NCBI RefSeq assembly: GCF_003334405.1
Contig: NZ_QOWM01000041.1
Length of the DNA: 1,996 bases
Reading direction: 5' to 3' (one strand)
DNA from: Escherichia coli
GTDB taxonomy: Bacteria > Pseudomonadota > Gammaproteobacteria > Enterobacterales > Enterobacteriaceae
Positions 1 to 1,856 of this stretch are shown piece by piece. Position numbers and translations under genes: made by a program. The number at the start of each line of letters is the position of its first letter. Positions within the stretch are counted from its first letter, which is position 1. A model generated the notes under the pieces. That model was given only the letters and a program-made list of their open reading frames with translations. It searched no databases and was not told the origin of the DNA.

Positions 1-810
1 AACCAGATGGACCCGGTGTACACGCCGGCGCGAAAAATCCACCTGTACCACTGCGACCATCGCGGCCTGCCGCTGGCGCTTGTCAGCACGGAAGGGGCAA
101 CAGAATGGTGCGCAGAATACGATGAATGGGGCAACCTGCTGAATGAAGAGAACCCGCATCAGCTGCAGCAGCTTATCCGCCTGCCGGGGCAGCAGTATGA
201 TGAGGAGTCCGGCCTGTATTACAACCGCCACCGCTATTATGACCCGCTGCAGGGGAGGTATATCACTCAGGATCCGATTGGGCTGAAGGGGGGATGGAAT
301 TTTTATCAGTATCCGCTGAATCCGGTTCAGTATATAGATTCAATGGGACTGGCATCAAAATATGGACACTTAAATAATGGCGGATATGGAGCGAGACCCA
401 ACAAACCGCCTACGCCCGATCCAAGTAAATTGCCGGACATAGCGAAACAATTAAGACTGCCATATCCTATTGACCAGGCCAGTAGTGCGCCTAATGTTTT
501 CAAAACATTCTTCAGAGCATTAAGCCCTTACGACTACACACTGTATTGCAGGAAGTGGGTAAAACCAAATCTGACTTGTACGCCACAGGATGATTCCCAG
601 TATCCAGGGATGGATACAAAGACAGCAAGTGATTACCTGCCACAGACAAATTGGCCAACAACTCAATTACCACCAGGATATACTTGTGCAGAACCCTATT
701 TATTCCCAGACATTAATAAACCCGATGGGCCAGCAACAGCAGGGATAGATGATTTGGGTGAAATTTTAGCTAAGATGAAACAGAGAACATCGAGAGGAAT
801 AAGAAAATGA
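1..810 (+). CDS. ybfO: Rhs-family protein, 3' portion only (5'-partial; reading frame is open from base 1, so the ATG at 7 is an internal Met). Contains the end of the RHS repeat-associated core and a 152-aa variable C-terminal (CT) toxin domain of unknown activity; possibly an orphan Rhs core-CT fragment
   Basis: Translation carries the hallmark end-of-core motifs of Rhs proteins: [76 protein letters not shown] is at nt 226-246, DPIGL at 271-285 and the terminal DSMGL at 337-351. Composition switches from GC-rich to AT-rich at about nt 290-350, as expected at an Rhs core/CT junction. Stop TGA at 808-810. The symbol is from memory of the K-12 RhsC-region gene order and was not verified by search. 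Confidence 0.9.
223..351 (+). other. Rhs core/CT boundary: putative aspartyl-protease autoprocessing region ([21 protein letters not shown] ... [10 protein letters not shown]), with predicted release of the CT domain after Leu115 (nt 349-351)
   Basis: Seen in sequence: two D-x-x-G-L motifs 22 residues apart, DPIGL (aa 89-93 of the ORF-track numbering) and DSMGL (aa 111-115). Established knowledge: in Rhs and Tc-toxin RHS cages a PxxxxDPxGL motif marks the C-terminal autoproteolysis site, and the variable toxin domain starts immediately after it. The conserved Pro is replaced by Ser here. Confidence 0.7.
352..810 (+). other. Variable C-terminal (CT) toxin domain of the Rhs protein, 152 aa, Pro-rich, 3 Cys, no motif I can assign to a known toxin family
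   Basis: Sequence downstream of the DSMGL motif is AT-rich and shows none of the core consensus, as expected for a polymorphic-toxin tip. I could not find HNH-type, PD-(D/E)xK-type or deaminase-type motifs by eye. Confidence 0.6.
792..798 (+). promoter_or_regulatory. Shine-Dalgarno (GAGAGGA) for the immunity gene, lying inside the 3' end of the Rhs CT coding sequence; indicates translational coupling
   Basis: Purine-rich GAGG/AGGA core with an 8-nt spacer to ATG 807; start and stop codons overlap. Confidence 0.55.
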
Positions 811-863
811 AAAGAGTTTTGTTCTTTTTGCTGATGATATTTGTTAGTTTTGGTGTTATAGCT
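807..863 (+). other. Signal peptide of the putative immunity protein (aa 1-19, predicted SPase I cleavage after VIA)
   Basis: KR at positions 2-3, then a 13-residue hydrophobic stretch [13 protein letters not shown], then small residues at -3 and -1 (V-I-A). Not a canonical lipobox because Asp sits at -1 relative to Cys21. Confidence 0.6.
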
Positions 864-1376
864 GATTGCGAAATACAAGCTAAAGATCATGATTGTTTTA
901 CTATTTTCGCTAAGGGTACTATTTTTTCCGCGTTTCCTGTCTTAAATAATAAAGCCATGTGGAGATGGTATCAGAATGAGGACATCGGTGAGTATTATTG
1001 GCAAACAGAACTGGGTACATGTAAAAATAATAAATTCACACCAAGCGGGGCGAGACTCTTAATTCGCGTCGGGTCACTACGCCTTAATGAAAATCATGCC
1101 ATCAAAGGAACGTTGCAGGAGTTGATAAATACAGCAGAAAAAACGGCGTTTCTCGGCGATCGGTTTAGAAGTTATATAAGAGCGGGTATCTATCAAAAAA
1201 AGAGCAGTGATCCAGTTCAGTTGTTGGCAGTCCTTGATAATTCAATCATGGTAAAATATTTTAAAGATGAGAAACCAACTTATGCTCGAATGACAGCACA
1301 TCTCCCGAACAAAAATGAGTCTTACGAATGTTTAATAAAGATACAGCATGAACTAATTCGTAGTGAAGAGAAATAA
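807..1376 (+). CDS. ybfC: Putative Rhs immunity protein, 189 aa, with a predicted Sec signal peptide (exported, probably periplasmic)
   Basis: ORF starts at ATG 807 and overlaps the upstream stop by 4 bp (ATGA at 807-810), with a GAGAGGA Shine-Dalgarno 8 nt upstream. This is the classic position of an immunity gene directly 3' of an Rhs CT. N-terminus [19 protein letters not shown]|DC has a basic n-region, hydrophobic core and V-I-A cleavage site; the mature part has 4 Cys. AT-rich like the CT it follows. Stop TAA at 1374-1376. The symbol is from memory of an E. coli K-12 189-aa secreted protein and was not verified. Confidence 0.8.
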
Positions 1377-1458: not shown

Positions 1459-1616
1459 CAGGGAAAGATCACGTAACGCTACTTTTTTGTACTAAATAAT
1501 TCGAATTTTAAGTTCAACAATTGAGATACTACTTATTGTCTAAAGCTGTTTTTCATAGCTTATACATGATCAAATACTCCTTACATAAATAAGGTGAACA
1601 AATGGAACTTAAAAAA
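1459..1616 (+). repeat. Direct repeat copy 1 (pairs with 1839-1996; period 380 bp)
   Basis: Hand alignment at offset 380: 150 of 158 identical. All 8 mismatches fall at 1504, 1511, 1515, 1518, 1529, 1531, 1538 and 1539. Confidence 0.9.
1591..1596 (+). promoter_or_regulatory. Shine-Dalgarno (AAGGTG) for the H-rpt transposase ORF; an identical site recurs at 1971-1976
   Basis: AAGGTG with a 5-nt spacer before ATG 1602. Confidence 0.5.
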
Positions 1617-1856
1617 TTGATGGAACATATTTCTATTACACCCGATTACAGACAAGCCTGGAAAGTGGTGCATAAATTGTCAGATATTCTACTGTTGACT
1701 ATTTGTGCCGTTATTTCTGGTGCAGAAGGTTGGGAAGATATAGAGGATTTCGGGGAAACACATCTCGATTTTTTGAAGCAATATGGTGATTTTGAAAATG
1801 GTATTCCTGTTCACGATACCATTGCCAGAGTTGTATCCCAGGGAAAGATCACGTAA
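1602..1856 (+). pseudogene. ybfQ: Truncated H-repeat-associated (ISAs1-family) transposase, N-terminal fragment (84 aa); the last 5 codons (QGKIT) and the stop come from the repeat junction
   Basis: AAGGTG Shine-Dalgarno at 1591-1596 and ATG at 1602. Homologous sequence ends at codon 79 (nt 1838), exactly where the second copy of the upstream leader begins; the frame then reads into that leader and stops at TAA 1854-1856. Full-length proteins of this family are several-fold longer. The symbol is from memory and was not verified. Confidence 0.75.

Follow-up and report, generated by a model that had tools for sequence, protein, structure and literature searches.

The stretch of DNA analyzed here, a window of 1,996 nucleotides from Escherichia coli (assembly GCF_003334405.1, contig NZ_QOWM01000041.1), very probably represents the distal portion of an RhsC element of the K-12 type. 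The ybfO gene within it would be a displaced fragment, composed of Rhs core and C-terminal (CT) domain, that lies behind rhsC and ybfB and is accompanied by its own ybfC. Nucleotides 1–810 are the 3′ part of K-12 ybfO (b0703); ybfC, ybfQ and the first part of a second H-rpt come after it. In terms of annotation, the stretch is the known ybfO orphan with ybfC and holds no new gene. What is added here is that the window, its boundary motif and its IS debris are undiagnostic of the orphan state, together with an estimate of how often the CT is armed and a description of natural fusions with distinct crossover intervals. The window alone cannot tell an orphan from an armed CT, as the identical sequence exists in both states (K-12 versus strains 300709 and SEC470). 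Only the upstream sequence discriminates between the two.

The plus strand of the window opens with the 3′ end of an Rhs core (positions 1–351), 117 codons in frame 1 that remain open past the 5′ end. In the ORF list and translation of the window, this frame runs from nucleotide 1 to a TGA at 808–810. Residues 2–117 match positions 1146–1261 of the 1261 in the NCBIfam RHS_core model (E = 2.8e-70; 237.5 bits for the window alone), and the Rhs_assc_core domain is matched over its full length (E = 4.5e-24). The Pfam “RHS protein” domain is matched in the K-12 fragment when this is extended upstream. Homology to the rhsC core DNA ends near nucleotide 348, and the GC content, which is 0.57–0.59 in the core, drops to 0.44 and lower past approximately the same point. 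The remainder of the frame, positions 352–810 of the plus strand, is the polymorphic C-terminal domain, YbfO-CT, a putative toxin of 152 amino acids closed by the TGA stop. The earlier note had counted 115 core residues followed by the CT; the order is correct, with the core amounting to 117 residues and the CT to 152. An Rfam search of the window gave no RNA family, and the minus-strand ORFs listed for it are all of 64 amino acids or fewer and nested within the plus-strand genes. The core homologies, the boundary motif and the IS debris of the window are all far above chance.

The core/CT boundary (positions 271–351, plus strand, as read from the translation) consists of DPIGL (271–285), 17 residues and DSMGL (337–351). 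The layout can be compared with the putative Rhs autoproteolysis motif of the aspartyl protease type, for which two DPxG(L) motifs approximately 18 residues apart are expected. Both aspartates are kept, and serine replaces the proline of the canonical DPxGL in the second motif. The boundary had been described as degenerate and counted towards the orphan reading. The substitution is indeed present, but it is of no use as an orphan clue since full-length alleles have DSMGL too: the motif is identical in all five of the full-length attached alleles examined. Distant relatives in other genera carry DSMGL, DSIGL or DALGL (D[SA]xGL) besides DPxGL. Its presence in both groups rules out DSMGL as a sign of decay. 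Judged by sequence comparison, the degenerate motif travels with the CT family and is no symptom of a decaying orphan, and its retention in full-length alleles and relatives from other genera suggests that the variant is functional.

Over its full 1996 nt, the window matches many E. coli chromosomes at 100% identity, those of K-12 derivatives included, and the orphan reading was examined at the K-12 locus, which is one of these exact matches. The locus in K-12 strain J53 reads kdpFABC, ybfA, rhsC (1397 aa), ybfB, an incomplete CDS, ybfC, ybfQ, two ISAs1 pseudogenes and ybgA. RefSeq labels the incomplete CDS [quoted passage not shown] and marks it as a pseudogene. This is ybfO, a 507-codon open frame without an N-terminus. 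The proposal that the stretch carries an orphan core-CT fragment is borne out in K-12-type genomes, where the frame is open for only 237 codons further upstream of the window and ends at an in-frame stop, the TAA of ybfB. Core homology starts approximately 31 nt past this stop; the junction between the ybfB stop and the orphan core in K-12-type genomes is ATTAAGTTAATTGCTCTTATTATTATATGT joined to AACCTGGGC. Directly upstream of ybfO, and in the same orientation, lie rhsC and its own immunity gene ybfB. No Shine–Dalgarno-like motif was found before the in-frame ATGs of ybfO, whereas rhsC, ybfB and ybfC each have one. The ybfO/ybfC part of the K-12 RhsC element was reportedly described by Hill and co-workers as an incomplete core that has an extension and a downstream ORF of its own, with H-rpt behind.

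Comparison with the core model gives the same picture. The curated cutoff of RHS_core (NCBIfam NF041261) for a full-length call is 2000 bits. RhsC spans positions 1–1261 with 2684 bits, and ybfO covers only positions 908–1261 of 1261 with 767 bits, the last 28% of the core; both ybfO and the window therefore score below the cutoff. The DUF6531/YD-repeat shell is absent from ybfO. BLAST aligns the ybfO fragment with rhsC in a single block of 1045 nt at 97.2% identity (rhsC nt 2695–3738 of 4194), which forms a direct repeat with an offset of 1871 nt, and the CT of ybfO shows no similarity to that of RhsC. The orphan had been expected to hold a short stretch of core. Its core in K-12 is longer than this, at approximately 354 model positions or 1045 nt, of which the core at positions 1–351 of the window is the distal third; these positions also make up the distal portion of the 1045-nt repeat that ybfO has in common with the main core of rhsC.

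The K-12 locus as a whole has the features of an orphan module. These include a core fragment that lacks an N-terminus and a translation start, a position downstream of a full-length rhs with its own CT and immunity gene in the same orientation, and a near-identical repeat of the main core. A DPxGL-type boundary is followed by an unrelated CT and a small ORF, and the CT of ybfO also occurs on full-length Rhs proteins elsewhere. The orphan reading is supported for K-12-type genomes, yet in these the arrangement is already annotated and conceptually well understood. The exact identity to K-12, taken with the genome counts given below, makes an orphan-type origin of the window highly likely.

The same DNA also exists as the end of intact rhs genes. 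In strain 300709, the window is matched with 0 mismatches and the CT ends an uninterrupted Rhs ORF of 1399 aa, which covers RHS_core positions 1–1261 (2676 bits) and contains DUF6531 (E = 8.9e-18) and RHS repeats; its match to a PAAR motif is insignificant (E = 0.19). Strain SEC470, again with 0 mismatches, likewise ends a 1399-aa Rhs with this sequence. An upstream ORF of more than 1000 codons, which the earlier note named as evidence against an orphan, is absent in K-12-type genomes and present in 300709 and SEC470. The CT is attached at the rhsC locus in STEC435, EcE.CRE.COL, strain 361 and ECZP248, with 1 to 10 mismatches to the window and H-rpt downstream alike. It is also attached at this locus in F690 and O157:H7 strains, and the downstream content differs in F690, the one inspected. 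Strain 746 has an attached allele at the nik/rhsB locus. Full-length alleles of 1399 aa at the rhsC locus are found in F690, 300709, STEC435, SEC470 and others.

The structure of these attached alleles was resolved by scoring the sites at which the main and orphan cores of K-12 differ. The 300709 allele has main-type sites as far as rhsC nt 2758 and orphan-type sites from 2838 onwards, and over its first 2694 nt it shows 0 differences from K-12 rhsC. SEC470 has 2 differences in the same 2694 nt and switches between 3021 and 3246, an interval that also contains the main-to-orphan switch of EcE.CRE.COL. In ECZP248, the switch lies between 3522 and 3646, and STEC435 and strain 361 are mosaics. 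There are thus at least three different switch intervals among the attached alleles, all within the 1045-nt, 97%-identical repeat. This pattern fits recurrent recombination between the main gene and the orphan. A main-to-orphan switch by itself is also expected of an ancestral allele that was never displaced. Such a single ancestral allele would give one switch point, and the differing points in near-K-12 backgrounds argue that at least some attached alleles are secondary recombinants of main gene and orphan. Gene conversion between rhs paralogues or the collapse of repeats during assembly could mimic some of the switches. Two assemblies of EDL933 have been reported to conflict at precisely this locus (PMC7216683).

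A route between the two states can be proposed on this basis. RecA-type recombination between the core repeats would delete RhsC-CT and ybfB and fuse the orphan CT to the full-length gene, and natural isolates that appear to have exactly such a fusion structure, with differing crossover intervals, exist. It is a serious possibility, although one that we place a little short of probable, that YbfO-CT and YbfC are an uncharacterized Rhs effector-immunity pair, narrowly distributed in the Enterobacteriaceae, that acts in the periplasm with a toxin fold and activity different from those of all known families, and that the cassette flips repeatedly between orphan and armed states in natural E. coli populations through recombination across the 1-kb core repeat. 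If true, the locus would offer a natural and countable example of Rhs toxin switching.

YbfO-CT itself is made up of a proline-rich variable linker of approximately 48 residues and a conserved domain of approximately 100 residues. The domain has three invariant cysteines, conserved aspartates and a basic C-terminus (RK). Searches of Pfam, NCBIfam and PDB sequences gave no match, and the family comprises only 28 clusters among 1.84 billion representative proteins. The end of an Rhs core lies upstream of the domain in six of the seven distant relatives examined that retain upstream sequence (P0035, P0036, P0040, P0041, P0042 and P0045, with P0044 being the one without). An AlphaFold (AF2) model is poor, with a mean pLDDT of 60, and Foldseek returned nothing below E = 1 for it against the PDB. 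A published I-TASSER analysis reported similarity of the C-terminal end of the EHEC RhsC to “VipE” with a TM-score of 0.574 (PMC7216683), which looks like a weak match. No experimental report of growth inhibition by the CT or of neutralization by YbfC was found in the papers searched. The signal peptide-like N-terminus and four invariant cysteines of YbfC make the periplasm or envelope the probable site of action of the putative toxin.

The predicted cognate immunity gene, ybfC, occupies positions 807–1376 of the plus strand, encodes 189 aa and overlaps the stop of ybfO with its start (ATGA). The N-terminus of YbfC resembles a signal peptide, with an n-region of MKR, a hydrophobic core and an (A/V)-x-A motif, and its four cysteines are invariant in a conservation analysis of 21 homologues from Escherichia, Salmonella, Citrobacter, Kluyvera and Pseudocitrobacter. 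The structural model is a β-sandwich (pLDDT 74) whose neighbors are only generic Ig-like folds, and the domain and structure searches gave no domain or fold assignment. In every locus inspected, ybfC lies 3′ of the CT. From these features we infer that YbfC is a predicted periplasmic immunity protein. In an STEC transcriptome, ybfC is listed as a “putative secreted protein” with transcripts detected (PMC6033998).

Past ybfC, an AT-rich spacer leads into H-rpt copy 1, a member of the ISAs1 family (positions 1459–1838, plus strand). This copy is cut off after 380 nt. Its left inverted repeat, at 1459–1479 of the plus strand, is CAGGGAAAGATCACGTAACGC. The ybfQ ORF (1602–1856, plus strand, 84 aa) is transposase-derived over 1602–1838, and it matches the ISAs1 transposase model at positions 1–51 of 314 only, with 65.1 bits against a cutoff of 70. 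The start of H-rpt copy 2, which is ybfL in K-12, occupies 1839–1996 of the plus strand, with a left inverted repeat at 1839–1859 and the transposase ATG at 1982, and exits the window at its 3′ end. The two copies form a direct repeat of 158 nt (1459–1616 and 1839–1996; 95% identical), each opening with CAGGGAAAGATCACGTAACGC and each containing the start of an ISAs1-type transposase gene. A complete ISAs1 is not present in copy 1, which has the left inverted repeat and no right end before copy 2. K-12 has three tandem H-rpt copies, and their right ends carry the CAGGGAAAGATCACGTAACGC terminus as its reverse complement. The earlier description of this region as tandem H-rpt fragments agrees with the two left ends and the truncated first copy, but the debris also occurs behind full-length alleles. 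As this applies to DSMGL as well, neither of the two is evidence for an orphan.

The frequency of each state was surveyed by DNA search in 5426 complete E. coli genomes. The CT and ybfC are present in 3615 of these, with 3518 covering at least 80% of the query and 2768 being at least 99% identical. The junction between ybfB and the core fragment is found in 2646 genomes, the entire RhsC-CT/ybfB/orphan/ybfC block in 2400, and at least 80% of the whole window in 3010. When 40 rows of the search were sampled at even spacing, ten carried “RHS element core protein” next to ybfC with a coverage of exactly 71%, as expected when the CT is attached. Extrapolation from this sample places the attached state in roughly 1000 genomes. 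The cassette is therefore present in about two thirds of complete E. coli genomes, the K-12-type orphan in about two thirds of the carriers, and the armed form in roughly a quarter to a third of them. Clustered protein databases returned only fragments of up to 826 aa when full-length proteins with YbfO-CT were sought. This fragment-only result is misleading, as full-length Rhs proteins probably cluster by their cores under representatives with other CTs. The K-12 ybfO product, for instance, was missing from the list of clustered-protein matches.

Several features bear on the expression of ybfO and ybfC. Between ybfB and ybfC, the plus strand has no terminator-like site. Promoter-like sites show no enrichment (11, compared with 8.3 ± 2.6 in shuffled sequences). 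A genomic SELEX survey of RpoD handles ybfOC as one unit in the portion that covers this region (PMC3946193). In the same portion, the only constitutive RpoD promoter listed is between ybfC and ybfQ, with no ybfO promoter among its entries (PMC3946193), and the listed promoter, TTTTCA-17-AATACT, falls at positions 1549–1577 of the window, within the left end of H-rpt. An internal promoter, P2, is known from Salmonella, and is defined by at least 80% identity to a 108-bp query and by the hexamers TTGACG-17-TACAAT (PMC7043789). The homologous stretch at positions 178–288 of the window has approximately 69% identity and the degraded hexamers ATGATG-17-TACAAC, with the −7 T lost, so that P2 is not conserved in the window. 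In-frame CTG codons are located at 283, with AGGA 10 nt upstream, and at 214, with AGGAG 6 nt upstream. We infer that the K-12-type orphan is unable to yield its toxin domain as part of a deliverable Rhs protein, and that the domain is silent. In the case of ybfC, its own AGGA ribosome-binding motif and the lack of a terminator-like site between it and rhsC would make it translatable from read-through transcripts.

Other accounts of the window have to be weighed against its origin in a K-12-type orphan. The window could be the actual 3′ terminus of an intact rhs gene of full length, from a source resembling 300709 or SEC470, with the CT armed. The identical windows that end 1399-aa ORFs in these two strains speak for this, as do the approximately 1000 genomes with an attached CT and the fact that, among the 3010 genomes with 80% or more of the window, no more than 2400 have the orphan arrangement. 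We consider it quite unlikely, however, given that most 100%-identical matches have the K-12-type orphan structure, and the orphan is at least approximately four times commoner among genomes with this downstream H-rpt configuration. The latter ratio follows from the 2400 genomes set against the 3010, which makes the orphan about four times commoner than anything else.

The remaining accounts concern what a K-12-type orphan does. One is that it is active from an internal promoter and a non-ATG start, so that YbfO-CT and YbfC form an intracellular module akin to a type II toxin-antitoxin (TA) system. Studies in Salmonella have described P2 at 89 nt upstream of PxxxxDPxGL and toxic products from a CTG start (PMC7043789), and the homologous stretch and the two CTG codons with their AGGA and AGGAG motifs would be the counterparts here. 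However, a cytoplasmic role of this kind is unlikely because the P2 hexamers are degraded and YbfC, the immunity protein, is predicted to leave the cytoplasm. A secreted YbfC would presumably miss a cytoplasmic toxin, and a toxin that acts in the periplasm would presumably be harmless in the cell without an export signal, which leaves the TA-like account very improbable. Alternatively, the cassette may be an inert relic, a displaced tip with a non-expressed ORF that drifts towards loss and has no protective or reservoir role. The pseudogene label of ybfO would agree with this, as would insertions of IS1, IS3 or IS903B in or beside the orphan in some strains and, in the portion of the SELEX survey noted above, the listing of an RpoD promoter for the ybfC–ybfQ spacer only at H-rpt. 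K-12 is also not known to have a type VI secretion system (T6SS), so that a re-armed gene would be undeliverable in K-12 itself. Drift towards loss is unlikely nonetheless. The frames of the CT and ybfC are intact and near-invariant, as the 2768 genomes with at least 99% identity indicate. Synonymous changes in the CT outnumber non-synonymous ones between K-12 and diverged attached alleles (8 to 3 and 3 to 2), natural fusions re-use the orphan CT, and ybfC is kept where rhs is deleted: in strain EF7-18-58, a deletion has taken nearly the whole of rhs together with the 5′ portion of the CT, and ybfC is intact.

With the window taken as a K-12-type orphan, YbfC would protect the cell against the approximately 1000 sequenced E. 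coli lineages that have the CT armed on a full-length Rhs. With roughly a quarter to a third of the carriers armed, it is plausible that the orphan immunity gene is still of use today, and YbfO-CT could merit a bench test.

The closest comparison is the ybfO/ybfC region of K-12, which shares with the window the same DNA, the same neighbors and the same pseudogene annotation, and from which there is no difference if the source is of the K-12 type. In genomes of the 300709/SEC470 type, on the other hand, the identical sequence belongs to a full-length gene.

Among experimentally studied systems, Salmonella Typhimurium LT2 has been shown to fuse its orphan to the main rhs, and so to arm it, through recombination across a 522-bp repeat of 95% identity (PMC3967940). 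The LT2 orphan, STM0292/rhsI-orphan, resembles ybfO in that a core fragment, a CT and an immunity gene lie directly downstream of the main rhs and rhsI (PMC3967940). Both are without a start and export signals, and in both a direct repeat of the main core permits the arming fusion. They differ in the repeat, which in E. coli is 1045 nt at 97.2% identity as opposed to 522 bp at 95%. They also differ in their CT and immunity sequences, which are unrelated, with the E. coli immunity protein appearing to be periplasmic. The LT2 fusion was shown experimentally, whereas that of E. coli is deduced from natural genomes.

In orphan rhs-CT/rhsI and cdiA-CT/cdiI modules described earlier, some core remains ahead of the DPxGL region, and full-length genes elsewhere carry the same CTs (PMC3150448). 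It has also been reported that incoming CTs displace resident “dissociated C-terminal tips” downstream (PMC2935791). The ybfO locus resembles the modules of both studies, with core kept upstream of a DPxGL-type motif, a CT that is fused elsewhere and a layout compatible with displacement. There is no difference in kind from these modules, and the ybfO locus adds population counts and crossover intervals. The TA-like Rhs CTs of Salmonella (PMC7043789) have in common with the window the corresponding piece of core and an in-frame CTG preceded by AGGA; unlike in those, the promoter hexamers are not conserved here and YbfC is predicted to be exported.

The full-length rhs alleles that carry this toxin domain (YbfO-CT, here CT) appear to preserve a record of exchange between the main rhsC core and the orphan core-CT fragment (ybfO) that lies 3' of rhsC-ybfB in K-12. 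The distal part of the core repeat shared by main gene and orphan occupies window 1-348. In the attached alleles, namely those of strains 300709 (L005 3611-7810) and SEC470 (L008 1807-6006) and of two further loci (L007 and L010), the switch from K-12 main-type to orphan-type core falls in separate intervals, corresponding to rhsC nt 2758-2838, 3021-3246 and 3522-3646. Upstream, the 300709 allele differs from K-12 rhsC at 0 nt and that of SEC470 at 2 nt, and both have zero differences within the window. Judged from these sequences, the differing intervals look like independent natural recombination events between main gene and orphan.

Where the CT is located on the main gene in strains F690 (L002 9272-13856) and 746 (L003 9299-10355), further orphan-type genes are found 3' of ybfC. 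These encode NTF2-fold immunity proteins and DUF6258 in both strains, and the nik/rhsB locus of strain 746 also holds pentapeptide-repeat pseudogene fragments, a Sel1-repeat protein and another partial Rhs core. These gene sets are arrays of displaced cassettes. In EF7-18-58 (L004 7699-8776), a deletion has placed the 5' end of rhsC, which encodes DUF6531, directly next to the last third of the CT. The CT remnant begins at about window nt 601 and ybfC is intact; the toxin has been destroyed and the immunity gene kept.

The repeated core also bears on a published PCR, which was meant to settle which of two EDL933 assemblies is right at rhsC (PMC7216683). The reverse primer falls in this CT (window 393-412). 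As the forward primer site occurs twice, once in the orphan core fragment (L001, the K-12-type locus, 9581-9600) and once at the equivalent site in the rhsC main core, the 832-bp product is expected from the orphan and attached arrangements alike and cannot discriminate between them.

Within the K-12-type locus, the orphan fragment (9290-10810) is in frame with ybfB (8933-9259), and nothing but the TAA of ybfB and 10 sense codons lies between them. One stop-codon change would fuse the two, and the shared frame is probably coincidental. In a number of strains, the rhsC-orphan-ybfC region is broken up by IS1, IS3 and IS903B insertions.

The CT (window 352-807) belongs to a tiny family of 28 clusters among 1.84 billion representative proteins, and has no match to any known fold or domain. 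Its conserved features are three invariant cysteines, an SPYDY..YC..W motif and a basic C-terminus (..RK). The product of ybfC (window 807-1376) begins with a signal-peptide-like stretch (MKR, a hydrophobic core and V/A-x-A), its four cysteines are invariant (21/21 homologues), and lipobox-like residues (A-[AS]-C) precede Cys21 in some genera. These features of YbfC, the predicted immunity protein, imply that it would be periplasmic or lipid-anchored, and that its predicted toxin partner would act in the envelope.

Downstream, the H-rpt left inverted repeats lie at window 1459-1479 and 1839-1859, with copy 2 starting exactly at its own left inverted repeat, 380 nt inside copy 1. K-12 has three head-to-tail copies (L001 11459-14084). 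Some strains (STEC435, EF7-18-58) have no middle copy, a pattern suggestive of recombination between copies in the tandem array. A constitutive RpoD promoter between ybfC and ybfQ (TTTTCA-17-AATACT) is reported in PMC3946193. It maps to window 1549-1577, within the H-rpt left end and 25 nt 5' of the transposase ATG at 1602, which makes it the promoter of the IS itself. Copy 2 carries this sequence again (1929-1957).
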